This document shows, in pieces, positions 4,461-34,180 of a stretch of 34,180 bases of DNA. The notes under the pieces were generated by a model. That model was given only the letters and a program-made list of their open reading frames with translations. It did not search any database and was not told where the DNA came from. The translations under genes and the position numbers were made by a program. This stretch comes from Chrysochromulina tobinii (taxonomy: Eukaryota): contig JWZX01002778.1 of assembly GCA_001275005.1 (NCBI GenBank), forward strand, positions 1-34,180, written 5' to 3'. Each line of letters begins with the position of its first letter. Position 1 is the first letter of the stretch.

Positions 4461-4676
4461 TGCGTTTTCGGCGCGACTTGATCAGTGAGTCCTGGTCGCC
4501 CTCGTGATGACTGCATATTCACACTGAAATAGCGGGTCCCCAAAAATTTCAGCATCCGGAAGATGGCGCCAAGGGCGCGCAGTCAAGAAACTGAGTAGAC
4601 TACGGATGTCATGTGCGTATCGAAAAAGCGACGAGCGTCAAATCGAAGTGGCGATCGACGCAACGCGCGACACAAA

Positions 4677-9539: not shown

Positions 9540-9780
9540 CGCCCGCCCGATTTCCGCAAAGTAGCTCTAGCTGTGAAGGACCGGGGTGACAGACTGACTG
9601 AAAGTGGGACACACACGGGATACACGAACACACACGAACACACGGATCACTCAGACGAACCTGAAAGTGCCGTACCGGTACGTGTTGTCTCAAAAAGGCA
9701 ATCCCTTGCCTCAAAAGTGAAAGTCTTGAAACGGTTGCCGTCCTGTTTGTAGGCTTTGAGGTGTGGACGTTTTTGCTCTC

Positions 9781-10457: not shown

Positions 10458-10489
<32 letters not shown>

Positions 10490-11874
10490 CAGCGGCGCGC
10501 CGGCCACAGTCTGCGCTGCCGCTGTCTACGCGCCCACCGTCTGCGCGCCTGCCGCCTACGAAGCCTCCTCACAAGGGCAGCGACGACGAGCTGGCGGCGG
10601 CTGCCCAGAGCGTGAGCGACAGGATCGATCGCGCGGTAGCCGAGCAAATTCAAAAGAAGGTCGCGACCCACGCGAGTCGGCCCGCCTCCGCTTCCGGCAG
10701 CGCCAGCAGCGTCGCACGACCGACCAGCAGTGCGAGCGCTGCGGCGGGCATCGGCGTGGAGGAGCGGCATGGGCGAGAGTTCGACGCGTATGCAGCCGCG
10801 CTTGCAAACGCCGAGGATCGACTCTTCAATCCGTGTGGAGGTGCGGGCTTGGGCGCACCCTCTGTAGAAGCCGCCGCCTCGCCGAGCGCCAGGGCAAGCG
10901 GCACGGGGCGGGCGTGGAGCAGCGTCCGTGCTGCCGCCGCTGGCGACGCAAGTGTGGCTGGCGCCGGCGGCGGTAGCGGCACGCATCGCTCTCATAAAGC
11001 ACTGACGAAGCGCGAAAACGGCTCCGCAACGGACGTGCTGCTGCAGTTTGGCTACCAGTCAGAGAGCCCCATTGCCTCCGGCGCCTTCTCGCAGGTGGTC
11101 CGCGCGCGCCATCTGAGCACTGGCAAGGAGGTGGCGGTCAAGACCTTCCAGACGCGCGCACGCGGCGGCAAGGCCGCGGCCGCCCTCAAAGACGTTCGGG
11201 CTGAGCTTGACGCTCTGACGCGGCTGCAACCGTCGGCGCACGTACACGTGGCGAATCTGGTCGCAACGTTCGAGTCGGAGCATGAGTTGCATGCCATCCT
11301 CGAGTACTGCCAGGGCGGCTCCCTCCAGAAGCACTTGCATGCGCAGGGTCATGGCATGGGGCTTCCCGAGCTCGAGGCGTTCAAGATTGCATGCCAGGTG
11401 GCATGTGCGCTCGGTCACATGCATGCGCTCGGAGTCGCTCACCGGGATGTTAAGCCCGACAACCTGATCTTTGCTGATCGGACGCGCGCGGCGGTGCGGC
11501 TCGTCGACTTTGGCTTCGCCTCGTGCCATGATGGCAAGCGGCTGCGCACCGTATGCGGCTCGCCGGCGTATATGGCGCCTGAGCTGATCGCAAACATGCC
11601 CTACCTCGGTCCACCTGTGGACGTGTGGGCGCTCGGCGCACTTCTCTTTGAGTTACTGCATAACCGCACAGCCTTCCGGGGCGAGTCGATGGCACAGCTG
11701 CACATCCGGATCCGCAAGGGCGCGCACACGCCGTTTGGACCCGAAGCGAGCTCGCGCGCCAAGAAGATCATCAAGAAGGCACTCACAGTCGAGGTACAGG
11801 AGCGGGCGGATGCTATGACAATCGCGCGCAACCTGCACGATTCGGGCATCAAAGTCGATGCGATGCCAAGCTGA
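9781..11874 (+). CDS. Ser/Thr protein kinase, CAMK group (AMPK/MARK-like), with long low-complexity N-terminus
   Basis: SGAFSQV, VAVK, HRDVKPDN, DFG, TVCGSPAYMAPE and DVWALG. Exact start codon uncertain. Confidence 0.9.
10459..10488 (+). repeat. (CAG)9CAA polyglutamine tract in the kinase
   Basis: Read directly; encodes Q10. Confidence 0.95.
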
Positions 11875-12432: not shown

Positions 12433-14397
12433 TCACCGCGGTGGCGGTGGCGCGCCCTGCCGGAATCGCTTGAGGAAGCCAGCTGTCATGGATGGCACCT
12501 GCGAGACTCGTAGCCGCAAGCCGCTGCTCGTCTTCCGGGCAGAGATGGCCGAACAGTCTCCTACCGCCTGCGATGATCCGCCTGCGCCACCACTGCGCGC
12601 GTGACCCAGGTCGACCCATGCAACCTGTGGCACGATCTGTGGGGAATCCAAACCGTCGCCAAATGGCAAGGATCGTGCCGGCCCACGCAGAGGCGGCACT
12701 GGCGATGGTCGAGGCAGTTGAGCCGGCGGTTGAGGCGGTGCACGCGGCGGCGGCGCTTGGCCGTGCACCGGTACGCCATTGCGAAAGCACGAGAACGCCG
12801 CGGAAGCCTCCGATGGTCCGTGTGGCACGCCTACATCGCATGCTGCCGCGGCCGCCGCTTCGAAGAAGCGCGAGGTGGTCGCCCGTCCTTCATTCGGAGC
12901 CGCTGGTGCGGCTCTGGCAGGCTCGTGGCCACCGGGGGCCACGGCAGCGGCAAGGCGCGCCGTAGTGGTGCGGGTCGAGAGCATGCCCCGCTGCGTTGCG
13001 TGCTCGTACTCGTGCTCATCACCATCGGTCTTGAGTGTGCCCGCTACCGGCGCTGGCGCCTCTGCTGGTTGTTGAAACCTTTCCCCCTCGACCGCCTCCA
13101 TCGCCGCCGCCACCGCCTCCACCTCGGCCGGCGCGACTCCGGCAGCTTCCTCCACCGCGGCCGCTTCGGTCGCAGGCACTTCAGCCACGGACGCGAAGGA
13201 CCATGCGGCTGGCGGCAGCGGTTGCGCAGGTGCCGGCAGCGACGCGCACGGCGGCAGCGGGGCGGGTGGCGGCAGACCCTCGAATAGTCTACTCACGTCC
13301 TCGAGCGTCTCCGCATCCACGGTGGCATCGATGCAGATGGCGTGCGCGAGGCCGGCCTCGATCGGCTCGCCGAGGTGGAAGCAGCGTGAGCGCGGCGCAC
13401 CGTCGCGGCGCAGGGGTACCACGCGCGCGCTCGTCGGGTCGTACACGAGCTGGTGCCAAAACGTCTGCCGCACGAGGTTCGCGTTGTCGAGCAAGTCGGC
13501 GAGCAGCTCCGCGCGCTCATGTGCGCGGGCGCCCCCGCCGCCGCTGCTGCATCCGGCGGCGAGTGTGGCTGCCAAACCCCCGCGCTTGTGGAGGGCGGCA
13601 GACAGACACGCCTCGAGGCTCTGATGCTCACGCAGCAGCGCGTGCGCCGTCTTGACGCCCACGCCTGGCACGCCGGACATGTAGTCGCAGCCTGCGAGGA
13701 TGGCGAGGTCTACGAGGAGAGTCTCGGCCCACGCTTGCCACTCGCCTGGCCATGCGCCGTCAAAGAGTGGCACACCGTCGCGCTCGGCGAGGCGCAGGTT
13801 GTCGAAGAGCGCGAGCCGGCCGTGTCCCGACGCATCGAGCTTGAACAGCACGCACGGGCACCCGTACACGAGAAGGTCCGAGTCCTCACTGATAGCTGCG
13901 GCACAGTGGCCGGCACGCACCAGGAAAGCGAGCTGCGCGTCGGCCTCGTAGGGCGCGACGACGAATGCGACACGCTGCTTTCGAAGCGCCGCGATGAGCC
14001 GGCGGCGCATCGCCGCTGTCACGCGGACGGCGCGGCCGAAGGCGGCGCTCGCTTCTGTGCGATGGCCCTCGGCAAGCAGCTGATGACCTTGTGCGAGCGC
14101 CGCCTCGCGCTGCTCTGCGCGCAGCGCGTTGGTGCGTGCCTTCATGACAGCCGGCGCTCCGTCGAAGACGAAGAGCAGCTCAACGCCGTGCTCACGGCAA
14201 AGTGCGATCATCCGCAGCGAGAAGCCCAGGTAGCGCTCAGTGTGCTTGTCTTGCGCAAGGTCGGAGGAGCAAGAGTGCGCACCGCGGTGCAGCCAGCCGG
14301 AGGCATCTACCGCGAGGTACTGCCCGCGGAAGCGCCCAACGTGCACATCCGGCTCGCACGCCGGCCGCACGAAATCGAGCAAGCCGATGATCCCCAT
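12433..14397 (-). CDS. EXO1: Exonuclease 1 (XPG/Rad2 family)
   Basis: Canonical start MGIIGLL at 14397; AVDASGWLHRG, VFDG, APYEADAQLA, SEDSDLL and GCDY..GVG.KTA motifs; disordered C-terminus. Confidence 0.92.
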   Translation of the reverse strand: MGIIGLLDFVRPACEPDVHVGRFRGQYLAVDASGWLHRGAHSCSSDLAQDKHTERYLGFSLRMIALCREHGVELLFVFDGAPAVMKARTNALRAEQREAALAQGHQLLAEGHRTEASAAFGRAVRVTAAMRRRLIAALRKQRVAFVVAPYEADAQLAFLVRAGHCAAAISEDSDLLVYGCPCVLFKLDASGHGRLALFDNLRLAERDGVPLFDGAWPGEWQAWAETLLVDLAILAGCDYMSGVPGVGVKTAHALLREHQSLEACLSAALHKRGGLAATLAAGCSSGGGGARAHERAELLADLLDNANLVRQTFWHQLVYDPTSARVVPLRRDGAPRSRCFHLGEPIEAGLAHAICIDATVDAETLEDVSRLFEGLPPPAPLPPCASLPAPAQPLPPAAWSFASVAEVPATEAAAVEEAAGVAPAEVEAVAAAMEAVEGERFQQPAEAPAPVAGTLKTDGDEHEYEHATQRGMLSTRTTTARLAAAVAPGGHEPARAAPAAPNEGRATTSRFFEAAAAAACDVGVPHGPSEASAAFSCFRNGVPVHGQAPPPRAPPQPPAQLPRPSPVPPLRGPARSLPFGDGLDSPQIVPQVAWVDLGHARSGGAGGSSQAVGDCSAISARKTSSGLRLRVSQVPSMTAGFLKRFRQGAPPPPR

Positions 14398-14524
14398 GGG
14401 ACGGTGACAAGGCGCTCGTGCGCTGCTCGCCTTCGGCGCGGCGGTGTGACACAGCGTTGTGCGAGATCCTTTGTGAGCACTTATGAGTGGACACACGTAA
14501 TTTTTGGAAGTTTGAGACATCGAG

Positions 14525-15433
14525 ATGGCATCGGATTTTTTCCGTTACTCTTCTGTGAACTGTGGCGCAATCGCGATGGTCGTCTTAGTCGCTCCAGCTC
14601 TCTCCACCATTTCCGCGGTCGCCTCCACCGCCTCCGCCGCCGCCTCGTCCGCTGTTTTGAAGTCCTTCGCAAGCGACGGAGTGAACTTCTTCAACTCGCT
14701 GCGAACGCCTGCCGCACTTGTGGCAGCAGCGGCGATCAAGGACGCATTCGCACTGCAGTCGGCACCAGACGACGTTAAAAAGTCCCGTGCGTGGACGGCC
14801 CTTCGAAACATGTACCTGCTGCTTCAGCTAGCATGCTTCAGTAGCACAATCCTGTGCATCTTCATCTCCACCCACGCCATCGTGAACCTCCAGTGCTCAG
14901 CGGGCGTCTCCGGGGTCACTGAGGCCACCTCACTGATCGCAATGATGAGGTCGCACTTCGAGTTCGAGTACGTCTCGGTACGCGCCTCGTTTGGGACCGG
15001 ATTGCTCGCCTTCGTCATCGCACAGGCGCTGCGCGTGCGCTACGAGCTGCGACGGGCCAAAGAAATGTCGTGGGCGGCGATGTGGCTTACATTAGCCTCG
15101 GCGGCTTTCATGGTTGCCTACAACAATTCCAAATCGATCACGTACGGCGGCTACACGGGCTTGGTTGCCCGGTGGGGTCGGCTTTCGGTACAACTTCTGC
15201 TCGAGCGCTCCTCCTTTGCACACCCGATGCCGCTCGTGTGCGCCTTCCTCACCGCCTTCGGCTCTGCGATCGCGGTCCGCGTCGCTCTCCGGCTCGCCCT
15301 CGATCAGCTCGACGAGGACAAGGACGGGTCCGTGAGCTGGAAGGAAGCAACCGGCTTCGTGACGAACCTGCCCGGGCGCGCGTGGCGGCTGATGACGAGC
15401 AAGGATCAAATTAATCAGCAGCCGCAAGCTTAA
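14525..15433 (+). CDS. Multi-pass membrane protein with a single C-terminal EF-hand
   Basis: Four to five hydrophobic segments and an EF loop DEDKDGSVSWKE. Start may be the later Met (MVVLVAP). Confidence 0.7.
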   Translation: MASDFFRYSSVNCGAIAMVVLVAPALSTISAVASTASAAASSAVLKSFASDGVNFFNSLRTPAALVAAAAIKDAFALQSAPDDVKKSRAWTALRNMYLLLQLACFSSTILCIFISTHAIVNLQCSAGVSGVTEATSLIAMMRSHFEFEYVSVRASFGTGLLAFVIAQALRVRYELRRAKEMSWAAMWLTLASAAFMVAYNNSKSITYGGYTGLVARWGRLSVQLLLERSSFAHPMPLVCAFLTAFGSAIAVRVALRLALDQLDEDKDGSVSWKEATGFVTNLPGRAWRLMTSKDQINQQPQA

Positions 15434-17080: not shown

Positions 17081-17842
17081 TCAGCCGAACATCTTCTTGA
17101 ACATATCTACAGGTCCACCTCCACCGCCGACCGCCGCCGGCGCGTCGAGCCATTCCTCGGCCTTCGATTGCACGAGCTCTGCATGATCCTCCCCAAACGC
17201 CTGCGCAAACGCCGGTCGCTGCGCGCAGCGCAACATGTATGCCGCGATCGCGGGGGTCTTGCTCAGGTCTGCGTTTGGAAAGAAGACGGGCACGTAGTTG
17301 AGGTATGATGCCACAGCCGCGTCAGCGACAGAGAAGCGACCACCAACGAGCCACTCAGATTTGGAAAGGATGGTCTCGAGAGTCGCGACCGCCTTGAGGT
17401 CGGAACGCTCCATGGAGGTGCCGCGAACGCGGTGGTCGCCCGGAATAGCGCCAAAGCAGAGCCCATCCAGACAGGCGTTCGCCCAAAGCACCCACGAGGT
17501 CATTGCGGCCTTCTCGGCCTTAGTCGGTTTGTCGCCCTTGAAGCCGTAAGTATCCATGAGGTAGAGGAGAATCGCCCCAGACTCGAAGACGACGACGCCA
17601 TCGTCGTCCGTGAGGCATGGTACCTGCCCGAAAGGGTGTGGCGATGGCCGGGACGGCGCCATCTCAAAATCAATGCCAGCCTCATAGCAGAAGAAGTTCA
17701 CCAGCGGGGAGCGAGACTGCGGCGACCCGTGCAGTCGAGGCAGGCCCATCGACGGCGGAAATGCCAGCCGTGCTGTGGAGCGTGCTTGTGACGCGATGAA
17801 AGTAGCAGTGAATGATAGAAATGCTGTCAGCGACGCTAACAT
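17081..17842 (-). CDS. Glutathione S-transferase with N-terminal targeting leader
   Basis: HPFGQVPCL, FESGAILLYL and WLVGGRFSVADAA motifs; hydrophobic then Ser/Thr/Arg-rich leader. Confidence 0.9.
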   Translation of the reverse strand: MLASLTAFLSFTATFIASQARSTARLAFPPSMGLPRLHGSPQSRSPLVNFFCYEAGIDFEMAPSRPSPHPFGQVPCLTDDDGVVVFESGAILLYLMDTYGFKGDKPTKAEKAAMTSWVLWANACLDGLCFGAIPGDHRVRGTSMERSDLKAVATLETILSKSEWLVGGRFSVADAAVASYLNYVPVFFPNADLSKTPAIAAYMLRCAQRPAFAQAFGEDHAELVQSKAEEWLDAPAAVGGGGGPVDMFKKMFG

Positions 17843-18017
17843 GACCGCGAGGAGGTGTGTGTTTGGCGAGGTCGACTCTTCGAAACTTTCTCGGAACTGA
17901 CTGGAACATACAGAACTGAAGTGAAGGAAGCTGTTCAGAAACTCTGAACCTCAGCCCGGCGGCTTCTGTGTACAACAAACCGGAACATCTATCTGATTAT
18001 TCACGTCATCAAACATC

Positions 18018-19785: not shown

Positions 19786-22136
19786 ATGGCTCACATCATT
19801 GCGCAGGCCGCATTGCTGCTGCGGCAGCTCTCGCCCGCGGACATTGCATCAGATGAAGCTGCCGAGCTACGCGAGGTGGGTCTCGCGCTCTTTGGACGGC
19901 TGGCGATAAAGCAGGCCTACGGTGAGAAGGACGTGGTAGAGTTCCTAAGGGAGCAGGCAGGCCACCGAACGCTGCTGAAGCGCCTGGAAAAATTGCAGAA
20001 GCAGATTAATGCGGAGCACGATCGTCGCTGCGCAGAAGCGCAGAGCGCTGGCATTAACCGTGCGCGGCAGGCAACCATGCAGGCCATCGAGGCCGCATCC
20101 GCCGAGGCCGATGACGAGGCCGCTGTGGAGCTCATCAAACAATCCACAGACCATGCAGGCACCCCTGCACCGCATCCATCGGAGCCGTGCAGTGAGCTCG
20201 TCATGGCTCCGCCGAGTGTCGCGGCACCGCCCTCGGGCCCACCGCGACTGCCTCCGCGCGCGTCGATCGATGCAGCCGTGAGCGACGCGGGTGAGGTGGG
20301 CAGCGCTGTCGCAAGCGCGGCGCGTCTGCCTGTGGGCAGCTTCCGTCGTGCGTGCGGCGTGTGCAAGCGCTCATACGCCGACGTGCACGACTTCTACCAT
20401 CGCCTATGCCCCACCTGCGCCGAATTCAACCTTGCAAAGAGGCTGCAGTCGGCCAACCTAGGGGGGTACGTGGCACTCGTCACAGGCGGCCGTGTGCGCA
20501 TCGGGTGCGCGATCGTCCTCCGGCCTGATTGCCTCAGATTGCGAGCTCTGACGTCCTCTGATGAGCTCTGCTCAAAGGTACGAGATGAGATCGTGCTCAA
20601 GCTGATCTCAAGCTGATGACCTCACTGATGACCTCACTGATGACCTTACTGATGACCTCCCTTGATTGCCATCCCTAATTAGGTACGAGATCGTGCTCAA
20701 GTTGCTCCGAGCGGGCGCGCATGTGATCGCGACGACGCGCTTCCCCTCCGACGCGGCACAGCGTTATGCCCGTGAGCCTGACTTTGGGACGTGGTGTGAA
20801 CGGCTTGAGGTCGTGGGTCCGCTTGAGCTCGCCAACGTCCGACAGGTGGAGGCTCTGAGTGCCTCGGAGTGCCTCGGAGTGCCCCTGAGTGCCCCTGAGT
20901 GCCTCTGATGTCCGGCAGGTGGAGGCTTTTGCCGCGGCGCTGCGTGAGCGCTTCTCGCGGCTGCACATCCTGATCAACAACGCCGCACAGACCCTCACAC
21001 GCGAGCCTGGCTGGTTTCTGCGCATGGATCGTCTCGAGAGCGTCGCCGCCGCCGCGCTGCCAGCTGAGGGGCGCGCACTGCTTGTCCACTCGGAGGCCTA
21101 TCTGCTCAGGACGGCGCTCCGTGCTGGCCTACCCTCCGCCGAGAGTGCTGCCGCGGCGTACGTCGGCAGCAGCAGCGGCGGCGGCGCAGGCAAGGGCGAC
21201 CCTCACACTGCAGGTGGCACTGCATGTGGCGTCCTGCTTCCGGCGGGACGAGCGCACGCGGCGAATGGGTTGGAGGAGGCTCTTACACCAAGTTTGAATG
21301 CACACCAGGAGGCCCTTGCACCGGATGCGCCAGCGGGGGGTTGCCTTGTACACTCCCCCGCCGTCGCCGGTGCGATTGTGATGGCCAAGGGGCTGGGAGC
21401 CGCTGCCGCGCAGTCGGATGACGGTGGCGGACATGGCAGTGAGGTAGGCTTGTCCGCGGCGGACCTAGCCGCCTTTCCCGAAGGCAAGCTCGATGAGACG
21501 TGGCAGCCCCTCGACCTCTCTACACAGGTGATTCCCACTGGATTGCCTCTGGTGTGAATTCACACTTGATTGCCTCTGAATGGGCGCGCCATCTATGTGA
21601 AGCCCCCTTCTCTCCCGGCCTGCTCACACCAGAACTCGTGGTCGCGCCGTATCGGCGAGGTCTCAACCTCCGAGCTGCTCCACACGCTCAGCGCCAACAC
21701 CGTCGCCCCGTTTGTGCTGTGCGGCGCGCTCCGGTCGCTGCTGGCGGCGCCCGAGGACGATCCCGACGCGCCCTACGGACACATCATCAACGTGTCCGCT
21801 CTCGAGGGCAAGTTTTCGGTGGGTAAAAAGGGGTCCGGGCACCCCCACACGAACATGAGCAAGGCCGCGCTCAATATGCTGACGCTCTCAAGCGCAGGAG
21901 GCTTCTTTTCGGAGAGGGTGCTCGTGAACGCCGTCGACACCGGGTGGGTGACCGATATGGCGCCGGGCGGAGTGGGCGCCGTGGCCGCGACGCACGCGAC
22001 GCACGTTGGGCCGCCGCTCGACGCCATCGACGGCGCGGCCCGCGTGCTAGATCCCATCTTCAGCCACGTGCGCGACCCACGCGGCTTTCTGGTGCGAGGC
22101 AAGTTCTGGAAGGACTACTGCGTGTCTAATTGGTGA
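19786..22136 (+). CDS. Atypical short-chain dehydrogenase/reductase with N-terminal CxxC..CxxC; 4 exons (19786-20504, 20683-20845, 20919-21527, 21633-22136)
   Basis: Splicing three GT-AG introns joins four track ORFs in frame, giving TGGRVRIG|YEIVLKLLRAGA, NVRQ|VEAF..LINNAAQT and LDLSTQ|NSW. It also has HPHTNMSKAALNM and VDTGWVTD. Confidence 0.88.
20505..20682 (+). other. SDR intron 1 (178 bp) containing (CTGATGACCTCA)4-like repeats and copies of the next exon start
   Basis: GT at 20505 and AG at 20681-20682; removal restores the Rossmann motif GY. Confidence 0.8.
20846..20918 (+). other. SDR intron 2 (73 bp) with 10-bp CTGAGTGCCY-like repeats, flanked by an 18-bp direct repeat
   Basis: CAG|GT...CAG|GT; removal restores the frame. 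Confidence 0.85.
21528..21632 (+). other. SDR intron 3 (105 bp)
   Basis: CAG|GTGATT...CACCAG|AAC; removes an in-frame stop; contains GATTGCCTCTG twice. Confidence 0.85.
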
Positions 22137-22348
22137 CCTGCCGGAAAGTATCGTGGGGGCGAAATTTGTAGATGCGACCGGAGGAGTGTGGCTGCAAGAT
22201 GGTAGGTCCCATCCGGGGAATTCACAGTTGGAAGTTTCACGCAGTCACACGCATGTGGAGAATAATCGGCCTCCGGACTCAGGGGACGCACCCTCGTCCC
22301 GTTGATTAATGGAGAATCCGATGCCGCCGTCTTCTCTCGACCACGCTC

Positions 22349-25300
22349 ATGACGCGAATCCTGAACGCTGAAGCTATGAACCTCGCGACCCCTGGCAAGG
22401 ACACCTCGAACCCCGACAAGCCGCCGCCAAAGAAAGCGCTCTTCTCATCGCCGCCGGCGCACACGTACACCACTGACAAAAATCTAACACCAAGCACGAC
22501 CGAGAAGCGCAACACTCGGGAGAGCAACTGGGTGCTTCTGCGCGGAGCTAGCATCGACACGAAGCCCGAGCAGAGGGTCAAGGACACGATCGAAGTTATC
22601 GAGACCGAGCCACTGCTCGAGGGCATCATGTTCACGAAGCCGCTTGAGGTGACCTCGACTGCTCTGGTCAAGATCACAACCGGGTCGCTCGACGGCTCCG
22701 CAGTGCACATGCATCAGAACCTCGTATTTCTGAAGGAAGGGCTCCCGAACATGCAGGCGATGCTCGTGCTTCCCAAGACGGCCTGCGTCGGCGCGCTCGC
22801 CTCGCAGCTTGCAGGGTGCTACGGCGTCTACCAGCGCATCCAGCACATGACGCAGAAGGAGAAGTGGGACGAAGCCCGCCTCGCATGGATGAAGAACGTG
22901 GACAAGCTGTTTGATACCGGCACTACTGGCGAGTTCGAGATGAGCTTCGAGCGCAGCGTCGATCGCCACAAGGACAAGATCAAGTATTGCTCTGACGCTA
23001 TGGCTCTTGGCTTCGCGTCGTGGGCGCTCCCGCAGGTGATCAACTCGCTCGTCGCGGCTCTCAAACTCGAGGAGTGGATGGTCGCCGACCCTGATTGGGA
23101 CGCCGCGGACGTTGACGACCCGGCCAATGCGGAAAAGTTGGGGGCTATGCGCAAGCATTTTCACGAGTTTCAGACTGAGCTCAATTCAGCGCTCAAGGCG
23201 CTCGGGATCCAAGGTCCAGAGCGCGACGACGGGTGGGTCGCCTACCCCGTGGACAAGACGGTGGAGATCACGGCGAAGGGGCTAGAGGTGCTGCGCCTCC
23301 CGTCTGGCGACAAGGTCGAGGTGAAGAAGCTCATCTCCACCGAGGAGCTGCTCTCCGGGGTCGATGTCTACGTCGCGCCTCAGGCCGGCATCTTCAACAT
23401 CAAGCGTGCCTTCCGCGAGGGCGGAGACGGACTCGAGGCCGTGATCACAGAGCTGGGCGACGACGTCAGCCAGATCATCCCGCGCATTGAGATGGACACG
23501 GAGGCGACTGGGCTGATCAAGCTCACGCTCCGCATCAAGCTGACGTCGGAGAAGGCCGTCGAGAAGAAGCTGCAGGCGCTCTGCAAGGACTCGCGCAACG
23601 AGCTGACGGAGACCAAGGGCGTGCCGACGAAGCTCGCATCAGGCGACGAGGTGCGCATGATCTGGTCGGGCGACCTGGGCACGGCACGCGTGCGCAACGG
23701 CCTCAATCGCATTGCTGCAATCACGGCCGAGCAAGGCATCAAGAACTCGGAGGAGGTCAAGAAGCTCAAGGGCGAGCTGGAGAAGCAAATCAAGGTGAAC
23801 GTCGATGCCATCCTCGAGCAGGATGCCAAGATCACGGCGTACTCCGCGCACATGCAAGGGCTCATGGACAAGCAGGCCACAGTGATGACCGAGATGCAGA
23901 ACCAGCACGCTTCGGCAATGGATGACCTTCACAAGCAGATGGCGGCGAGTGAGGTGGCGCACACGACGCACACGACGGACCTGCACAAGCAGATGGCGGA
24001 CACGGACGCGCAGCACGCGGCAGCGATGGACGACCTGCGCAAGGTGGTCCTGCAGCAGCAGCAGCAGATGGGCGACATGCAACAGTTGGTCCAGCAGCAG
24101 CAGCAGATGCAGCTCACCTTCACGACGCAGTTTGGCGATCTCTTCAACTTCATGAACGCTGTCACTGCCGAGATGATCGAGCAGCGCAACGCGGTGAAGG
24201 CCTCGGTGATGGCTATCAAGGAACTCAAGGACGGTCAGGCGGCAGGGTATGTGGATGCGATAACACGGCGGCAGTGCGCGGTGCTGCGTCAGGTCTTTGC
24301 CATGCACAAGCGAGTCACCGCTCTTGCATCTCTCGTACGCACAGGTCCGACTGAGAAGCGACTGGTGGAGGACGACGTGATGAGTCAAGACTCCCAGGTA
24401 GGAGAGGGGGATGGGACGAAGGCAGACGAGCAGGCTAATGTCGAGGGCAAGCATGGCGCGAGCCGTGGAGGGGACGTGCGAGCCCGCGAAGGAGACGCAG
24501 CCGTAGGCGCAGCTGCGTGCGCGAGGCTGACCTCGGACACCCGAGGAGCCGATGGACCTAACTGGTCGGCAGAGCCCGGTGGACGAGTGCCCCATGAGGG
24601 TGGACAGAGCATAAACTGTGCCGTGAGAGAGAGCGGGAGCACTCGAGATCACCGATCCGGAGAGAGTCCGCCATGGATCAATCGGCGAGGAGGGGCGAGT
24701 GGCATGTTAGACGGACTGTGTGGCATATCGACTCTGGGCGTGTCATACGTCGAGTTTGTGTCTATGTCTCCATCGATACCTATGTCGGCTTCGAGGATCA
24801 ATTCACTGCCAGTCCGCAGCGTCATAGAGCGTCGAGTCGGGCACGACAAGTTTGGAGTTTTTGCGAGCACGCGTGGTTTTCATGTGATACTCGTTCTACT
24901 TCTCAGCTGCGCGGCACGATGCGAGGCGTTCTCTGGAGTTGCTTCGTGTTGCACGACGATGGAGCTGCGACGCGCGGACGATGCGACTCTACTGTGTCGG
25001 GATACGACGGAGATGCGTTGCTACGATCAGGCGGTGTTGCAACGCTTTGGGATCACAGGGCGTGGGGCCTCGTGCGGCGACGTGGGGTCGGCGTTTTGGA
25101 AATGCTTCGACACGATCGAAGGTAATCCAACACCAACGGCGATCGGCGCAGCAACCGAGCGAGAGGCAGAGCCAGAGCCTAGCCCGAGGTGCATCGCAGA
25201 GCACCCTGCCACGCCGGCCACCGCGGCACGCTCGATGCGCACCTCGACCGTCCCACTATACTCTCGGCCGACGCCAAAGTGCACGCCGATCGGCACGCCG

Positions 25301-25447
25301 CGCACCTCGGCGGCCCTCTGGCCGTTGATGTGCCACGCGAGCACGCCGCCGGCGAGCGTCATGCGGATCCGATCTGGGCACCAGATGGTCAAAATGAGAG
25401 CGGGGAGCGATCGACAGACAGGCAATCATCGACGGATACGCCGATGA
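22349..25447 (+). CDS. Retrotransposon ORF1 (1032 aa) with a long coiled coil
   Basis: Lies upstream of the pol ORF; heptad-rich Q/M/K/E region at about aa 460-640 with three 18-aa units (DLHKQMA). No CCHC knuckle seen. Confidence 0.7.
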   Translation: MTRILNAEAMNLATPGKDTSNPDKPPPKKALFSSPPAHTYTTDKNLTPSTTEKRNTRESNWVLLRGASIDTKPEQRVKDTIEVIETEPLLEGIMFTKPLEVTSTALVKITTGSLDGSAVHMHQNLVFLKEGLPNMQAMLVLPKTACVGALASQLAGCYGVYQRIQHMTQKEKWDEARLAWMKNVDKLFDTGTTGEFEMSFERSVDRHKDKIKYCSDAMALGFASWALPQVINSLVAALKLEEWMVADPDWDAADVDDPANAEKLGAMRKHFHEFQTELNSALKALGIQGPERDDGWVAYPVDKTVEITAKGLEVLRLPSGDKVEVKKLISTEELLSGVDVYVAPQAGIFNIKRAFREGGDGLEAVITELGDDVSQIIPRIEMDTEATGLIKLTLRIKLTSEKAVEKKLQALCKDSRNELTETKGVPTKLASGDEVRMIWSGDLGTARVRNGLNRIAAITAEQGIKNSEEVKKLKGELEKQIKVNVDAILEQDAKITAYSAHMQGLMDKQATVMTEMQNQHASAMDDLHKQMAASEVAHTTHTTDLHKQMADTDAQHAAAMDDLRKVVLQQQQQMGDMQQLVQQQQQMQLTFTTQFGDLFNFMNAVTAEMIEQRNAVKASVMAIKELKDGQAAGYVDAITRRQCAVLRQVFAMHKRVTALASLVRTGPTEKRLVEDDVMSQDSQVGEGDGTKADEQANVEGKHGASRGGDVRAREGDAAVGAAACARLTSDTRGADGPNWSAEPGGRVPHEGGQSINCAVRESGSTRDHRSGESPPWINRRGGASGMLDGLCGISTLGVSYVEFVSMSPSIPMSASRINSLPVRSVIERRVGHDKFGVFASTRGFHVILVLLLSCAARCEAFSGVASCCTTMELRRADDATLLCRDTTEMRCYDQAVLQRFGITGRGASCGDVGSAFWKCFDTIEGNPTPTAIGAATEREAEPEPSPRCIAEHPATPATAARSMRTSTVPLYSRPTPKCTPIGTPRTSAALWPLMCHASTPPASVMRIRSGHQMVKMRAGSDRQTGNHRRIRR

Positions 25448-28400
25448 CCATTACGAATACGGCAGGCGGAGTCGAACTCGCCTTTACGCAACAGTCAGCG
25501 CGCGTGCGGGGAGCATCTTGGCGCGTTACGAGATGCAACAGCACGGTGGCGGTTCCGGACGGCTTGCGACGGCGACGCCTTCGCTGGCACGTCAGCCGAC
25601 GAGCATGGAAGAGGCTAATGAGGTCGCTGCGTGGGAACACAGTTGCAGACATGTTCAACGTCGCGCTCTGGAACGCGCGCGAATTCCATGCGGACGCGTG
25701 TCCTGCTCACGAGGCTTCTCGAGCGAAAGCGCTGTGGATCATGCGAAGGTTACAGGAGGAAGATGTTGACGTCTGCTTCCTGCTCGAAGTGATGGGATCA
25801 CAGGATGCGTTCACAGCTAAGACCTATGGGTTGCGAGCTATGGCGAAGAAGGTTGGCTATGTGGTTCGCTGGATGGTTGGCGAGGGTGGGAGCCAGCGTG
25901 AGCAGCGGCAAAGCGGAGTATCCTTTACCAATGGCATTGCCGTACTCGTTAAGCAAGCGACCTGCGCCATCGAACGACACGTGCGGCTCGAGGAGAGGGT
26001 TCTGGGCGTATGGATCCAAGGTCGGGGAACAAAGGAGCGAATCCAGACGAGGATTGCCGCAGTTCACGGGCTGCATTACGACGGTACCTCGAACTTCGTG
26101 AAACAACTGCAGGCCACGTATGCGTGGGCGGCCGACCCAGCGCAGACCGTGAAAGGATGTCTCGTGGTGGGCGATTTCAATTATGTTGCCGACGAAGCGT
26201 GGCGATCGTCGCACGCAACACTGAGCGCCAACGACCGGGCGTTTCGTGATTACAGCTCGCAGCCGGGGGCTGAATACGTCTTACCTGTTGCTTCACAACC
26301 TTTGGTCGTTTGGACTCGGAAGGGCGGGGACGTTGCCGAGACGAGCAATTCCGAAGGCTTTGGATCCATGCTCGATGGCGCCGTCACGATAGGATCCGAG
26401 TGTGGGTGTTGGAGGAGGACTGTGGTGGATTTCGCTTTCAGCCATGACGGCCCGGCGACGGGCACAGCCAAGCCGCTCTCTGATCACGCGTGGGTCACCT
26501 TCTCCAGAGAGATTCCACAGTTGGAGCTTAGAGGGGAGAAGCGACCTTTATCGGCACTATCAAGAGGTGATGTGCAAGCCAAGGACAGTTATCGAGATCG
26601 CGTGCGAGAAGGCGACGTTGTCGAGGACCTTTTATCGGTGCGAGGATTGGTTCACGCGACTTCCTCTGCGGTTCGATTGCTACGAAGAGCGGCTGAGCAG
26701 GCCGTGGCGGAGGTGCGGAGACGTCGTGAGGATCGGCCGCTGGAGACGGCGCACAGGTGGCGCAGGTGGCTGCAGGAGGCGTATGCGGCGCGGCGCCAGG
26801 GTCTGGCACCGCACGAGGTGCATGGTGGCCTTTTCAACTACCACTCGCGTCTATGGCTCATTCGTGAGAGATATAAGGGAGCTGGAGACGATGTATGTTG
26901 GTCCAAGATCATCAGGCGCTGTCGACGGTGCTGGACGAGGGCGACCCAGAGACTTGTGTTTCGGCAGCAGCGGGAGGATAGGCGTCTTCGCGAGCTATCG
27001 CTGAGCATCGTCGAGGGCAAAGGCAACAAAGACCTTGCGCAGGTGGCGATGCGAGCCTGGAAGGCGATCCGCCCGCAGCGCGTCAGCTTGGCGTTCGATC
27101 GATTTCACCCAAAAGATGACGTTCACAGCGCCCCAACTCTCGCGGCTGACGACCCGGACGCTTTTCTAAGTGGGCTTGCACGTGAAGGCGATCGATTAGT
27201 TCATGGTCTCTCGTCCACTCCGCCGATCATTGAGGCGTTCAAAGCCTTTTGCAAGGTCTTTTGCCCAACCTACGACACACTACGTGGACGTGACGGCGGT
27301 GAGTGGGAACTCTCCAAGGAGCTGACTTTCCCAGTCTTTTTGCAAGTGCTTCAGCGCGTTCCGAGGGGGAAAGCCGTGGGGTACGGCGGCTTTTCCATCG
27401 AACTTCTCATTCACGCCGATCGGGGGATCAAGAGAGCCTTCTATGATTGCCTTATGGCGGATTTGCGGGGAGGAGAGTTCCCACCGTCGTGGCGGAAGGT
27501 CATCTATACGTGCTGCTAACGAAGCCGCCGCCGAGTAATCCCGCACTGATCTCCGAGAGACGAGAAATTGCCTTGATGGCGCAGGACATGAAGCTGATCA
27601 TGCACATGGTGCGTGCAACGGCGTATCGGCTCATTACGGGTAGACTACGATCCGAGCAGTGCGGCTGGCTGCCTGGGTACGGCACTGTCGATGCTGGGCT
27701 CCCGTTGGCAGCCGTGATACAGCAGGCGCAGCGCCTACATCAATCGATATGGATACTGTACGTCGATCTGGCGACGTTCTTTCCTCGTATTGACCGTGAG
27801 GCTCTCACCGTCGCCGAGCTGTTGGTCGGGCTCCCCCCGCAAGTTATTGAGCTGGTTGGGCAAATTTACGGCGCTGGACGAGCGGTGGCAGAGGAAGCGG
27901 TTGAGTGCCAATTCGACACGTCCATCGGACTCAGTGCCTCTTTCCGAAATCACATGGGAGCCTTGATGGGGGAGGTGCTCTCTCCTGATCGAGCGAAAAT
28001 CATTCTCAACTCGATCTTGTGGGCGATCAAATTGCACGTGCACGGGGTGCAGCTCTTTGGGTTTGGGGAGGATGAGGAGGGATGCATTCGTGCGATTGCG
28101 AGCTTGGCCTACGCACAGACGATTGGGCGGGTACGTTTGGCAGCGAGGCGGATCTGAGGCGTGCCTGGGCGATATGGAGCGTTTGGGTCCCGATCTCCGG
28201 CTCTAAGTTGGGCATCAAAGGCAAACTCAAGACCGTCGTCACGGGAGTCATTCGAGATGGGCAGGGCAAGGAGAGCGATATCCCTGACCCGCAGCTTGTC
28301 ACGCTCGATGGCGTCCGCGTGCCTACTCTTTCGCGGAGTGAGGCCTACAAACATCTAGGGGTGCTGCGCGCGGCAATAGGCGGAGATGGGGCGGCGGCCG

Positions 28401-31400
28401 AATCGCTCAAGAAGCAATTGCGGGTCGCGATCGGTCGTGTGGCGCGCATGCACAAGCCGTCCAGACACGACATGGTCTTGGTAACGAATGGCCTCTTTCA
28501 GGGGCTGGCGGGCTTCAAGTGCAGCACGGTGTACTACTCCTTTGAGTGGATGGAAACCGTGGAACAGGAGTGGAGGAGAATGTTCAACAAGAAGGCACGA
28601 CGAGACGCAACTACGCCAGCGTGCCTGCTGTATGAAGGCGGGGGCGGCGCGGCAGAAGGTCGGCGACACCTGTGGGCGATTGGGTGCGCCTCGTTTTACG
28701 TGGCTTTCACCAGAGCACTCTCTGACGCCGCCGACACTTCTCAGCGCGCAGCGGCACGATCGGCGTTGGCGCTCAGCCTGTCGAGGTGGGGAGCGCAGGG
28801 AGACCCGAGGTTGTTCTCTTGGCGCCACCTCACGAGCGCTCTCGAGAGGCAATTACGAGGCCGCCAGCGGTACCTTGGGGAGACCTTCATGCTCATCTCG
28901 AGCCTCCTGCAGGGTGATAAGCCTTCCGGGGAGAATTGGCGGTGGGTGCAGCGCCCTGAAGCGTGGGACCCGCTGCACGAGCAGCGCCCTCACTTTCGTA
29001 CGATGGAGTCGATCGCGCTCTTTGAACCCGAGCAGCAAGGTGGCCTCGGCATCGAGCCTGCGCCCAAGCTTCTCGACGCGCGCATTCGCGTGGCGGGGCA
29101 GATGTACGCATGCAGCGGCATGCACGAGGAATCTAAGCTGATGTCTTTCGATGAGGCACGTCGGATCTATCCGTGGCTGGGCGTTGGAGCACGCACGGAG
29201 TGGGATAGGACGGTGGCGAGTCTCGAAGATCGCCTTGACGCTGGAATGGTGCCGGAGCGCGAAGCGTGCAGGGCTTGGGATCAGCGCGGGCTCTGTGTCG
29301 GCGGCGGAACCGTCAAGCTTAGTGGCAGCAGTGCAGGTGAAGTGTCGAGGACGGATGAGGCGAATGAGCGCACGTTGCACGAGGCCATTCGGCGTGCGCT
29401 TGGTGAGATCAAGCGCGGCGCGGTGCTCACACCTTTCGATTGGGAATCTTCTTTGCGAAGCACGTTTCGGGGGATCAGGAAGCCGAGCGCCGAGGAGTGG
29501 TGTGTTGGGGGTGGCGACACTCAGGCGGATGCGCGGGGGGGGCGAGTTTTCTGTGACATCGACAGCGCAGAGGAGCCACGGGGCGGTGAGGCATCGTGGC
29601 TTTGCCGAGCGGACGTCGACGAACAGGGATTTCTTTTCGGCTGGATGGACCGCGCGGGCGAGATACGAGCACGGTTTCACTTTGACACGGCGGGCTACCT
29701 TTGCTTGCGAGGTGGTCCAAGACTCCAACATCAACACTTAGCACAACTCGACCCCGCGGTGCAGCTAGTGGCACGGGCGCGGCTGGCACTTGGCGACGTT
29801 GACGTCCTCCCGGGGGATGGGACGAAGAGGCAGGCGACACATGTGCAGCTGGCCGCGCAGCGTGGTCTTTGGGAAAAGCTCACGACGTGGTCGGCACGTA
29901 TCAGGGCGACACGTATTTATACGCTGGATGGAGGATGGCGTGACGTCAAGACGGACAAAGGGGTGGTGAAAATCGCCACGAGGGCGGCGATCGACCATGA
30001 GGGAAATGTCCTCGGAGGGCGGATTTGCGAGGAGGACGTGAACGAGGATAACTACATCGCCGAGCTCGCCGCACAACTCGACGCGCTCACTGACGCGGTC
30101 TCGCGAGGGACGGAGGAGAGGGTCATCATCGTCTTCGACGCCACATCACCGGTCAGGGCGATGCTTCGCTTTGGGCGGCTTAGCGCTCGTGCACGTGGGG
30201 ATCGGCTGGCCGCCGAACTCCTCGAGCACTTTGAGCGTCTCCGGCGGCGGGTGTCGGCCTTGGTGCTAATCTGGCAGACGTCGCACGTGGGCGAGCCAGT
30301 CAATGAGTGGGTTGACATGATGTGCGACAAGTTTGGAGTGGATGATGATTACCCGATCCCGCGAGGCAAAATTGCTTTCGCCTCGGTCGTCTTTCCGGAC
30401 CATAGGGGCCCGGCACAGGCGTACGCCATGCGTGGCATGAATCGTGTCGTTGCACAGCGCCTACGCAGTCGGGTGCGAGATACGATACTGCGAGATCCCG
30501 ATGAGCATGTGAAACTGTTGGGAATTACATCAGAGGCTCAGCAGATATGCGACGAGATCGCAGCGCGGCGGTGTCAATACGTCGATCAGCCGTACGCAGA
30601 GCCGCGAGCGCGACGAGTTTTGGCGGCTGAGTGGTGCCCCTTTGGCTGCACTGATCACGACGGGCGGTGGCGAGAGATCCATCCGTCGGCGGTAGCGCGG
30701 CGAAGGGCGCTTCATCTCCCCGAGCTCGCGAGCCTCATTGCGGCTCGTCTTGGGGCGCAATCTGGTGCGACTTGTGAGATCTCGTCACAGGAGCGGACGA
30801 ACTTAGGCGGAAGCGAGGTGCAGCCGGGAGACGCGGTTGGAGGGCGGGGACGGTGGTTCGCGCTTACTGAGCGATCTCCCACCTGGTGGCACTTTCAATT
30901 CGAGTGTACGGGGGCGCCACTGCTGGCGGCGCGGAAAGCATACGCACTTGCAGCGGTGGCGGCGCGGCGATGCATGGTCGCCCTGCAGAAGGGACGCGAG
31001 CTTGTCCCGCACAGCCAACTCGATGATCTCATTTTGCTCATACATCAAGGATTGAAGGGCTGGGAGGCAGAGGACAAGGCTACAGGGTCGGAGGCTCAAC
31101 AGCAGAGCCTCAAAAATCGGATCCAGAGGGGAATCACTGACGCCTGGGAGACAGAGTGGCTACGAGCAGGAGCCGCAGGGGCCGTGCGAATCTCTGGCTC
31201 GAGGGCGGATGCCAACGGACGATGGAGGCTAGCTCTGACGGAAATGGTACTGAGTGGGTGCCAGTTGCAAAAACTAGGCAAGGAGAGCTGCGCGGAGGGG
31301 AGGAGGGCGTTCTGGGAGCGCCTCGGTGACCTTCGCATTCTCGGCAAGATCTTCGCAGCTTGGAGTTCCGCTCTCTTGCGCACCACGACGCTGCGGGCAG

Positions 31401-32578
31401 CGGCGCTGCGAAACCTGCGGTTGGCGAGGGAGTTTGTCACGCGTGTCACGACGGGCGAGAGGCGACGCTTACGCAAGGAGGTCGGAAGGAGGCTGGCCGC
31501 GGTTGACGAGGAGCAGGCTGACAATGCGCCAGGCGAGTGGCTGCAGCTGCGAGCTTGGTTGGCTTGGCGCATGGTGCTCGCGCAAGGGCTAGGCAGAAGC
31601 GGCAGATGCATCGTTCACGGGCCGACGCGCGACTCCTTGTGCGAACAAGTGCTGGAGTCTTCCACGGGAAGACAACAAGAGATTGCGAGGGCTCGCGAGG
31701 GCGTCGCGGCGCTGAGGTCGAGGCAAGGGCGAGCGTGGCGGCGGTGGTTGCGCACGGGCGGCTGGGCAGCGTTTGACCTTTGCTTTCAAAAAAGGGAAAG
31801 GATCATGAGGAATCGATCGCTCGCGGCGCAGCGGGATGGAATGCGACGATGGGCGTGTCTGGCGGATGGCACGAAGTGGCAAATCCTCACTGAAGCTGAG
31901 ACGGAGGAGCGGTTCGAACTTCGACACGAGGGTCTGCGGGCCCTTCTCGAACTCAAACAGGTTTTGAGTGATGGCGAATGGAAGGCTCTGGGCATTCACA
32001 ATCTGCGACTCGGGCATTTTATCAGGGTCGAACACTTGTTCTACGGGCCGGAGCAGGCCCCCTCGTGTCACACGTTGAGTGGGCATGAGGCGATGGACGT
32101 GGGTAACTTAGTGCGAATTGAGATTGAACCCAGATGGGACCCGCATCGAGCGAAACGGCGTCGGCAGGAGGTACTGAGTGCCAGGCGCGACGTTCGACAA
32201 CGCGTGGCGATGGGCCCCGTGGTCGCTGGTCAGGAGGCGGATGATGGAGGACGTTGGGCGGTGCGTCGCATTATGGCGGTGCGCCGTCACGAGGGGCGGC
32301 GCGGTCGCCCTCTGGACGTACTCGTGGAATGGGAAGGCGAGGACTCTGACGGGGACCTCTGGGAGGAATCCTGGGTCAGCGTTACCTATCTCTCGAAGGA
32401 CCTGCGTGACGAGGCGAGACAGCTCGAAGGCGAGCTGTTTGGGGCGCGAGGTGCGCACCAGGCGCCCAGTCGGCGGGCGGCGCAGCGAGACGAGGCGAGA
32501 CAGAGGCAGGAGAGAGAGAGAGAGCGCATGCAATGGAGCGCTCGGCTACGAGATCGGGCGAGAGGGGCACCCGTGTAA
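25444..32578 (+). pseudogene. Retrotransposon ORF2 (~2376 aa reconstructed) interrupted by two +2 frameshifts at 27505-27506 and 28116-28117
   Basis: APE ~25651-26500 (LWNA, LLEV, GDFN, LD, SDH). RT ~27370-28360 (REIAL, QCGW, YVD, GALMGEVLSP, YADD, YKHLG). RNase H ~29912-30330 (LDGG, AELAA, FDATS, SHVG, NEWVD). Chromodomain ~32255-32430. 7135 bp minus 4 bp gives 2377 codons. Confidence 0.88.
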
Positions 32579-32717
32579 CCCCGCAGCTCTCGAGCCGCAA
32601 CCGTGGGTTGACTGGTGGCTTTCATCAGCTTCAACTCCCGTGTTGTTGAACACCGTACACGCTTAGTATGCCTGGGGGAGACCCCCTCGCCACGTGTGCG
32701 CTGCCAGTGGGCGTTGT

Positions 32718-32737
32718 TTACTTACTTACTTACTTAC
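32718..32737 (+). repeat. (TTAC)5 3' tail of the retrotransposon
   Basis: ttacttacttacttacttac, 140 bp after the ORF2 stop. Confidence 0.9.
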
Positions 32738-33125: not shown

Positions 33126-34180
33126 ATGCCGGCCAGTACTGCCTGGGGGCAGTGCCTGTGCGTCGCCATCGCTGTCGGGGCCTCGGGTGTTATAGGGGGG
33201 TTCGTTGGGCACGATGCCCCCCTCGACTCCCCAGCCCGAGCGTGCGCGCCAAGCTACGCCATTGCTGAGCCGGCCTCGGGGGTTATAGGGGGGTTCGTTG
33301 GGCACGATGCCCCCCTCGACTCCCCAGCCCGAGCGTGCGCGCCAAGCTACGCCATTGCTGAGCCGCATGCAGTCGTGCTCAGCTCTCGATGGACTTCCAG
33401 CGATCTTCAAAGTGAGACGGGTCGATTCGCTTGCCTCAGCTTCACCAGGCCAAGCCGCGCAAGATACTACAACGGGGGTGATATTCATTTTCATCATCCT
33501 ATGCATGGCCATCATCCCCATCATCCCCATTCTCCACATACGCATACCCCTCATTCGCATACCCCTCATGTACATTACCCTCCGCCACCCTCGCCGCCGC
33601 CGCCGTCTCCGCCACCACCATCGCCGCCACCAGCACCACCATCACCGCCGCCATCGCCCCCGCCGCCTCCATCACCACCTCCTCCTTCGCCGCCACCAAC
33701 GCCGCCTCCATCACCACCTCCTCCTTCGCCGCCACCAACGCCGCCGCCACCGCCTTCCCCTCTGCCACCCGAACCATCGCCACCACCACCCTCTACTCCG
33801 CCACCGTCGCCTCCGTCATCTCCACCCTGCCCATCGCCACCCCCTCCGTCACCGCCTCCCCCGTCTTCGCCTCCGTTGCCTCCACCACCCTCTCCTCCGC
33901 CACCGTCGTCGCCGCCGCCGCCGCCTTCGCCACCACCCTCGACACCACCATCGCCACCACCACCAAGTCCGCCCCCATCCCCACCACCACCACTTCCACC
34001 ACCACCTTCACCGCCACCACCATCACCGGAACCGTCTCCTCCACCACCACCTTCTCCCAGATCACCATCGCCATCACCGCCTCCATCTCCGCCACCACCG
34101 TCCCCGCCCCCGTCGCCACCTCCTCCGTTGCCACCACCACCATCCCCACCGCCACAACCACCTCCTCCGTGTCCACCACC
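33126..34180 (+). CDS. Secreted His-rich, Ser-Pro(n) extensin-like protein (5' part; runs off the window)
   Basis: Manual translation from ATG 33126 gives MPASTAWGQCLCVAIAVGASGVIGG...HFHHPMHGHHPHHPHSPHTHTPHSHTPHVHYPPPPSPPPP..., with no stop before 34180. Confidence 0.75.
   Translation, partial: MPASTAWGQCLCVAIAVGASGVIGGFVGHDAPLDSPARACAPSYAIAEPASGVIGGFVGHDAPLDSPARACAPSYAIAEPHAVVLSSRWTSSDLQSETGRFACLSFTRPSRARYYNGGDIHFHHPMHGHHPHHPHSPHTHTPHSHTPHVHYPPPPSPPPPSPPPPSPPPAPPSPPPSPPPPPSPPPPSPPPTPPPSPPPPSPPPTPPPPPSPLPPEPSPPPPSTPPPSPPSSPPCPSPPPPSPPPPSSPPLPPPPSPPPPSSPPPPPSPPPSTPPSPPPPSPPPSPPPPLPPPPSPPPPSPEPSPPPPPSPRSPSPSPPPSPPPPSPPPSPPPPLPPPPSPPPQPPPPCPP
33179..33365 (+). repeat. 93-bp tandem duplication (31 codons, one mismatch)
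   Basis: Copies start at 33179 and 33272; the only difference is T33188 vs G33281. Confidence 0.95.

Follow-up and report, generated by a model that had tools for sequence, protein, structure and literature searches.

The stretch of DNA analysed here (the window: 34,180 nucleotides, positions 1 to 34,180 on the forward strand of contig JWZX01002778.1, assembly GCA_001275005.1, from Chrysochromulina tobinii) contains a broken, 10.4-kb copy of a non-LTR retrotransposon (one without long terminal repeats, LTRs) at 22281-32737 on the plus strand, and intact members of the same family encode one giant polyprotein that ends in a chromodomain. The family is a non-LTR retrotransposon that is Dualen-like in plan, departs from Dualen in its restriction-like endonuclease (RLE), which is missing, and in the placement of its reverse transcriptase (RT), and is probably undescribed. 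With modest confidence, we favour the interpretation that the chromodomain would serve as a chromatin tether that biases the choice of insertion sites, new copies landing in tolerated sites. A preliminary description, made from the sequence alone, had proposed an undescribed algal lineage of long interspersed nuclear elements (LINEs) that acquired its chromodomain by convergence. The first part of this proposal is supported, given an algal non-LTR element with its own RT clade and no family match among those testable, whereas the lone convergent capture does not.

Judged by sequence profiles and a predicted fold, the chromodomain placed at 32255-32430 in that description is real: four lines of evidence agree, each of them weakly. 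A profile of nine aligned members produced eight matches in the PDB (E 0.005-0.76), all to chromodomains, with Swi6, CDYL, MPP8 and HP1 favoured. The AlphaFold model consists of three strands and a helix (mean pLDDT 73), Foldseek placed chromodomains at ranks 1-7 (probability 0.51-0.92; best E 0.077, probability 0.91), and VIA aligned the model to cpSRP43 (Z 5.1, rmsd 2.5 A, 51 aligned residues) and to Chd1, SUV39H1 and HP1 (Z 4.6-5.0), the VIA scores for chromodomains spanning Z 4.5-5.1. The three-stranded sheet, C-terminal helix and chromo box that define PF00385 are present, with each score below its cut-off. Whole-protein Pfam scans of the window family returned neither Chromo nor RNase_H, both of which surfaced only via isolated domains, profiles or folds; the isolated chromodomain matched Pfam Chromo at E 0.0074, and 2 of the 9 aligned members matched, none reaching the cut-off.

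The evolutionary evidence for this domain is stronger. A protein search with the C-terminal frame yielded 33 close homologues among 7,989 scored candidates; 27 carry the chromodomain, and the other six end before reaching it. Across nine copies (36 pairs), the dN/dS ratio is 0.05 at an identity of 0.93, compared to 0.04 and 0.92 for the RT and to ratios of 0.15 and 0.25 for the neighbouring segments, although these values are rough because dS is near 1.2. Every domain of the family is under purifying selection, and the chromodomain is retained even in members with 25-33% identity outside the RT. This constraint shows that the chromodomain matters for mobility. One explanation is hardly credible, namely that the domain arose as a chance motif or through an assembly join to a gene of the host or of a Gypsy element. 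The single-sequence scores are weak and the 3' end of the window derives from another copy (see below), but every copy that extends far enough has the domain in frame, and the domain sits within the target-site duplications, is under strong purifying selection and is kept across a deep clade, which refutes this explanation.

The plus-strand open reading frames (ORFs) of the window overlap (22310-25447, 25183-27519, 27447-28157 and 28076-32578) and had been read as a two-ORF, L1-like layout with an ORF2 of ~2376 amino acids (aa). This reading has to be abandoned. In L010, which is the same insertion as L011, L015 and L023, a single frame of 3,358 codons extends from the 5' end to the chromodomain, and the separate ORF1 and ORF2 characteristic of L1 and Tx1 are absent. 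Single frames are also found in L018 (3,001 codons) and L020 (2,979 codons), called proteins of 3,339, 3,370, 3,330 and 3,718 aa exist in the family, and 8 of 15 proteins aligned to the window cross the supposed ORF boundary in frame (P0014, P0015, P0026, P0031, P0032, P0034 and P0035, aligned on both sides, and P0016, through its N-terminal extension). Compared to L010, the window has three frame-changing differences after position 25000, namely +185 at 25190, +2 at about 27508 and +2 at about 28114. The latter two are the frameshifts recognized previously, both 2-bp insertions, whereas the first, which had been missed, mimics an ORF boundary. Because contigs of two runs skip these 185 bases and the summed depth rises to about 770-900 versus about 40 in the flank, we conclude that this is a piece of an abundant repeat; it has no terminal repeats and extends past 25374 in other contigs. 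The element is thus a single-ORF element with a Dualen-like plan, and its features in the window are as follows.

22267-22280, plus strand: 5' copy of the target-site duplication, 14 bp; the 3' partner is present in L001 and absent from the window.
22281-32737, plus strand: the whole non-LTR element; the 5' end is (C)AGGGG in 8 of 10 insertions with a mapped duplication.
22376-25189, plus strand: N-terminal third of the polyprotein, with a conserved domain without a Pfam family (dN/dS 0.29), a Gln/Met-rich stretch and a variable linker.
25190-25374, no strand assigned: the frame-breaking 185-bp insertion.
25660-26500, plus strand: apurinic/apyrimidinic endonuclease-like domain (APE), Pfam Exo_endo_phos E 2e-8, motifs at 25666, 26170 and 26479.
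27310-28350, plus strand: divergent RT core, RVT_1 E 1.6e-4 (below cut-off), with the 2-bp insertions at about 27508 and 28114.
29912-30340, plus strand: RNase H with a His-type active site and all acidic residues kept, D-E-D-H-D at 29921/30056/30128/30278/30302.
30635-30907, plus strand: CCHC zinc knuckle split by a small alpha/beta insert (pLDDT 82-93), CPFGC at 30635 and HFQFEC at 30890.
30910-32200, plus strand: helical region, with helices in the model of its first ~330 residues; an RLE was not found in it.
32255-32430, plus strand: chromodomain, with Trp at cage positions 1 and 2 and Glu at position 3.
32579-32717, plus strand: 3' untranslated region, 76-99% identity between copies.
32718-32737, plus strand: (TTAC)5 tail, the end of the element, as previously described.

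The domain order proposed earlier (APE, RT, spacer, RNase H, CCHC, unknown region, chromodomain) stands, and so do the individual assignments upstream of the chromodomain, with the RT matching Pfam below the cut-off and RNase H resembling human RNase H1 in its fold (VIA Z 15.3, rmsd 2.7 A, 138 aligned residues; Foldseek probability 1.0). The RT has ALMG at the position of the QG motif of most LINEs, and its profile matches L1 ORF2p (E 1e-7) and then R2 at the top of the PDB search. The CCHC insert comprises about 80 residues in the window family, and the distant member P0037 has a compact CCHC; Pfam found nothing credible in either this insert or the N-terminal domain. The top 50 Foldseek and VIA rows of a 680-residue model contained no PD-(D/E)xK nuclease, but these rows are filled by RNase H and generic helices and so do not test the other parts of the model. 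The N-terminal third, with its Gln/Met-rich stretch, taken by eye as a coiled coil, likely does the job of ORF1p.

The features of an APE-type non-LTR element are all present in the family: a LINE-type RT, an upstream APE, target duplications of variable length, a simple-repeat tail, 5' truncation and the absence of LTRs. Those of a chromovirus (Ty3/Gypsy) are not: no LTRs were found in the window element, Pfam scans of the window family revealed no integrase family, and the RT matches L1 and R2. A DNA scan for the family identified 30 loci (L numbers). Duplications of 13-22 bp flank 10 of the 12 distinct sequences examined, the exceptions being L012 and the window, and two 5'-truncated insertions, L014 and L022, both have one; no common target sequence was apparent by eye among the mapped duplications. 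The window shares its 5' flank with L001 and is 99.8% identical to it, with 14 differing sites across 32347-32709; after the tail, L001 runs into the 14-bp duplication and the window into other DNA. Given these differences and the different 3' flank, the 3' end of the window comes from another copy, probably by a mis-join or by recombination, which accounts for the missing duplication.

To place the family, a profile search of 1.84 billion representatives was performed, yielding 117 proteins at E <1e-30, with the best 150 examined. C-terminal chromodomains were detected in P0138, P0139, P0141 and P0144, of which Pfam Chromo missed the last three, all distant, and none was detected in P0306, P0151 and P0308. 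In a 60-row RT tree, from which 96 of 156 candidates were left out for short RT cover, all 11 carriers belong to one 32-row branch (SH-aLRT 92), the other rows of which are fragments of at most 821 aa. In a 47-row tree (331 columns; outgroup of four unlabelled RTs), the carriers of the C-terminal chromodomain form one clade (support 99.8/100), which is joined by P0151, P0306, P0308 and group C (99.2/100) and then by group B and two more sequences (99.3/100; 26 taxa). The RT does not nest in the only described family available for comparison: 12 Dualen-type RTs, so labelled by architecture only, form a group of their own (97/95) apart from the window family. Here, 'Dualen-type' denotes the architecture APE-RT-RNase H-CCHC-RLE (P0354, P0356) or Haematococcus proteins with Josephin, as in Fig. 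S6 of PMC5029228, and is not a Repbase name. A profile was also built from the CCHC-RLE region of Dualen-type proteins, using 74 segments out of 121 proteins; a PD...E motif is present in 58 of the 74, and the positive controls P0354 and P0356 come from the same training pool. This profile detected no C-terminal RLE in 24 non-Dualen proteins, the best match (iE 0.006) covering the CCHC only.

These results bear on the alternative that the family is an RLE-less branch of a catalogued clade (RandI/Dualen, Ambal or another Repbase entry) with its chromodomain already annotated, which we regard as fairly unlikely. Its plan is that of Dualen minus the RLE (PMC5029228), RandI also has microsatellite tails (PMC3747384), a chromodomain-like module occurs in Dualen-type spacers, and a survey (10.1101/2021.11.30.470311) counts 823 fusions of chromatin and transposable element (TE) domains, a list that may bear on novelty. 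However, the RT falls into well-supported groups of its own apart from the 12 Dualen-type RTs, the RLE is absent from all 24 non-Dualen proteins, and the duplications of 13-22 bp contrast with those of Dualen-4b, more than half of whose insertions reportedly have duplications with a median of 900 bp (PMC9977147). Moreover, the Dualen schematics in the excerpts of PMC5029228 and PMC9977147 name no chromodomain. Full-text searches of the literature revealed no LINE-encoded chromodomain in titles or abstract openings, Repbase being outside their scope.

Chromodomain-like modules are not confined to the C-terminus or to the window family. In group B, a chromodomain lies between RT and RNase H; two of three segments match Pfam Chromo (E 5e-4 and 7e-4), 39 of the 41 PDB rows come from chromodomain-bearing proteins by title (best E 1.5e-6), and hhalign aligns the module to that of the window's group with a probability of 83%. 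Among 92 Dualen-type spacers, the motif [YFW]x[VIC]xW is present in 64 (4 in the reversed control). A profile of 14 hand-picked Dualen-type segments produced 15 PDB matches, 13 of them to chromodomain proteins (best E 6.5e-4), and P0425 combines a Pfam Chromo match (E 0.0018) with an RLE region. An iterated profile seeded on group B recovered only its two seeds and one marginal match among the 92 Dualen-type spacers, and hhalign aligned the Dualen-type module poorly with groups A and B (probability 3-6%). Because the Dualen-type module is this divergent, one ancestral module cannot be distinguished from several captures. Nevertheless, such modules also lie between RT and RNase H in a sister group and in many Dualen-type elements, which implies that the chromodomain is not a lone recent capture, and the motifs and profile matches suggest that Dualen may have an unannotated reader module. 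Chromo matches in Haematococcus gene models that also contain an integrase were discounted as likely nested Gypsy elements.

In keeping with the tether model, other chromatin-type modules were found in the relatives as well, namely GNAT and SET/C48 by Pfam and PHD in Dualen-type matches. The Pfam accessory domains include GNAT in P0151 and P0350, a C-terminal C48 protease with SET and without RLE in P0355, and ubiquitin in P0351. Segments read by eye as Tudor-like (C-terminus of P0308), SET-like (P0141, P0151) and OTU-like (P0141) had no Pfam support and are tentative readings. In the Dualen-type proteins P0354-P0475, the spacer contains the chromodomain-like module, sometimes followed by a PHD-like finger; many Dualen-type proteins also contain a PCIF1-like methyltransferase domain (PF12237), and P0435 and P0471 a DNA methylase (PF00145). 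An insert resembling family-A polymerases, by eye, is located in the RT-RNase H spacer of P0346 (residues about 1550-1760) and P0352 (about 1400-1640).

What the chromodomain does can be approached from its cage residues and from the insertion sites. Group I chromodomains, the readers of methyl-lysine, have three cage aromatics (Y24, W45 and Y48 of HP1), whereas group II chromodomains have lost the first and usually the third (PMC3350952); with W, W and E, the window domain fits neither group. Positions 1 and 2 are Trp in all nine aligned members. Nine of the 10 mapped insertion sites are outside ATG-initiated ORFs of at least 200 aa, although such ORFs cover 62% of the 81,972 flank bases (P 0.001), and all 10 are within 250 bp of an ORF of at least 200 aa. 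The assembled copies thus occupy short intergenic gaps and are not evidently in heterochromatin. It is improbable that the chromodomain, like that of MAGGY, recognizes methylated H3K9 or H3K27 and thereby directs new copies into heterochromatin, the model implied by the preliminary description. The two invariant Trp residues and the best sequence matches, which are H3K9me readers, would fit such a role, and copies in heterochromatin would be under-assembled; however, the third cage aromatic is missing, and all 10 mapped sites are close to long ORFs in unique, gene-like DNA.

A different role, which we consider unlikely but weightier, is that of a nucleic-acid or protein-docking module within the retrotransposition complex, comparable to the chromodomains of GEN1, eEF3 and cpSRP43, with no part in target choice. 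The incomplete cage, the Arg-rich loop RRHEGRRGRP and the absence of target bias past the intergenic position are compatible with docking; cpSRP43, a ribosome-bound chain containing eEF3, and GEN1 occupy VIA rows 1, 2 and 10; and constraint equal to that of the RT would suit a core mechanical role. Conversely, the long proteins P0306, P0151 and P0308, which are outside the clade, lack the chromodomain, so that it is dispensable for the core reaction, its location varies between groups (C-terminus versus spacer), and the sequence profiles favour Swi6, CDYL, MPP8 and HP1.

The tether model, which we prefer, builds on the single frame of intact members of the 10.3-kb family, which encode one polyprotein of ~3,350 residues, with the N-terminal domain followed by APE, RT, RNase H, CCHC and the chromodomain. 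In line with established LINE biology, the APE would nick the target, the RT would prime on the nick at the (UUAC)n end, and RNase H would remove the RNA, with a staggered second nick giving rise to the duplication. The chromodomain would bind either the surface of a nucleosome or a basic peptide that may be methylated, and the outcome in this gene-dense genome would be insertion between genes and not at a fixed sequence. The lineage itself is a Dualen-like group without the RLE nuclease, and the C-terminal position of the chromodomain likely goes back to the ancestor of the clade, in which the domain either moved there or was captured anew. More tentatively, and with some doubt, these elements could be part of a deep and undescribed clade of algal LINEs, giant and with a single ORF, in which the RLE was lost and targets are chosen through a chromatin reader. 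This reader would be a chromodomain, located at the C-terminus in one branch, in the RT-RNase H spacer in another and, hitherto overlooked, in Dualen as well.

Several observations weigh against the tether model. No single chromodomain score reaches a standard cut-off (Pfam 16.6 bits versus 25.1; Foldseek E 0.077; VIA Z <8), and the top VIA rows include the non-histone chromodomains of cpSRP43, eEF3 and GEN1. Nearly all members have Glu or Asp at cage position 3, and only P0036/P0102 have Phe there. Selection against gene disruption, together with an assembly bias to unique flanks, would also yield intergenic positions. Finally, the joining of the 26-taxon group with the Dualen-type group is weak (67.6/95), and none of the outgroup sequences is labelled as L1, Tx1, Ambal, I or R2.

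Dualen is regarded as the group in which APE began to take over from RLE. Ambal and Proto1, LINEs that are large or come from protists, combine APE, RT and RNase H; to our knowledge, both are two-ORF elements without a chromodomain, unlike the window family. Both names appear in a table of PMC4455052. With RandI/Dualen, the window family shares one very long ORF with APE, RT, a long spacer, RNase H and CCHC, a microsatellite tail, algal hosts and the capture of accessory domains (PMC5029228, PMC9977147). It differs in the lack of RLE and of a Josephin or C48 protease, the separate RT clade, the short duplications, the C-terminal chromodomain and the ORF1-like N-terminal third. The L1 clade, including the RNase H-bearing Ta11 and oomycete L1, is similar in the order APE-RT-(RNase H)-CCHC, duplications of about 15 bp and 5' truncation (PMC5348765). 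Unlike L1, the window family has one ORF, a His-type RNase H nearest to RNase H1 and not of the archaeal type, and no poly(A), and the score of its RT against human L1 ORF2p is only 34 bits. Chromodomains have been named as accessory domains of LTR elements (PMC6338049), and those of MAGGY and Tf1 influence integration (PMC3350952). Chromoviruses (MAGGY, Tf1, CRM), Chronos and the Ectocarpus Gypsy elements are LTR elements with an integrase (PMC3350952, PMC5348765, PMC12477816), whereas the window element has neither and would be target-primed; a centromeric LINE without a chromodomain has been described (PMC11288735).

Chromodomain targeting is thus known from LTR elements with integrases, and a LINE in which the chromodomain is constrained at the level of the RT makes chromatin-steered, target-primed insertion testable, with the intact natural copy L010 as a direct starting point. 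If the more tentative reading of a deep clade with chromatin readers holds, it would provide the first case of target-primed reverse transcription guided by a chromatin reader. The relative roles of chromatin and of nuclease sequence preference are relevant to the evolution of compact algal genomes and to retrotransposon-based gene insertion, and the family likely represents a new non-LTR clade near Dualen.

With respect to distribution, P0019, which is 82% identical to the window protein, belongs to a 90% cluster that includes two Chrysochromulina tobinii proteins. Part of the stretch is contained in 16 of the 19 listed sequencing runs, labelled as mixed-culture or freshwater metagenomes, and none of 29 candidate stretches in viral contigs contained a relative. 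In run X13, RNA contigs give far better coverage of the N-terminal third and of the 3' end than of APE-RT; such contigs show neither level nor strand, relatives below 90% identity are uncounted, and these data were not used. Microhomology of 1-3 nt at the 3' side of 7 of 10 junctions has no chance control and was not used as evidence either.

The last ~90 bases of the element are sequenced to very high depth, behind a variety of 5' flanks. In the window, the summed depth at 32648-32737 is 1,700-2,200, and many contigs start at 32648-32651 with differing flanks (also L017/L018 1-55). These bases likely represent a short non-autonomous family, resembling short interspersed nuclear elements (SINE-like), or many tightly truncated copies mobilised by the element. 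The bodies of L002, L003, L007, L017, L020, L025 and L028 contain internal inversions or deletions of a uniform 690-750 bp, and L017 and L018 are one insertion with and without such a change. These changes could reflect a real process of rearrangement or an artefact of the libraries or the assembly. In L018, a proline-rich low-complexity repeat (about 6000-6800) replaces the N-terminal domain, and a similar repeat is found at 33530-34180 of the window and near several other copies. A decayed, older 3' fragment with a broken chromodomain lies 4 kb upstream of a full-length copy (L025 482-862; also L002, L024 and L027). The distant member L030 (37% identity) has the chromodomain and a (TTATG)n-like, not (TTAC)n, tail.

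The DNA upstream of the element (1-22136) is gene-dense host DNA with long single frames, including, by eye, a cysteine synthase (3348-4481, minus strand), a kinase (9760-11874), an exonuclease 1-like protein (12433-14544, minus strand) and a GST-like protein (17081-17950, minus strand). A short-chain dehydrogenase, also identified by eye, stops about 130 bp short of the element, and an RNA run shows its GT-AG intron at 21524-21630.

Two short segments of the polyprotein deserve mention. The linker that precedes APE contains a hydrophobic, signal-peptide-like stretch (window about 24880-24940; residues 857-875 of P0001), which ends in an A-x-A-like motif followed by a Cys-rich patch and is also present in L018, P0032, P0034, P0041, P0127 and P0308; it is a candidate site for processing that would separate the ORF1-like part from the enzymes. 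A short conserved motif upstream of the chromodomain (window about 31950-32070) reappears in the APE-RT linker of group B (P0348 710-730 and P0321 760-788; iE 2e-5 and 0.03) and may constitute a second mobile mini-module.

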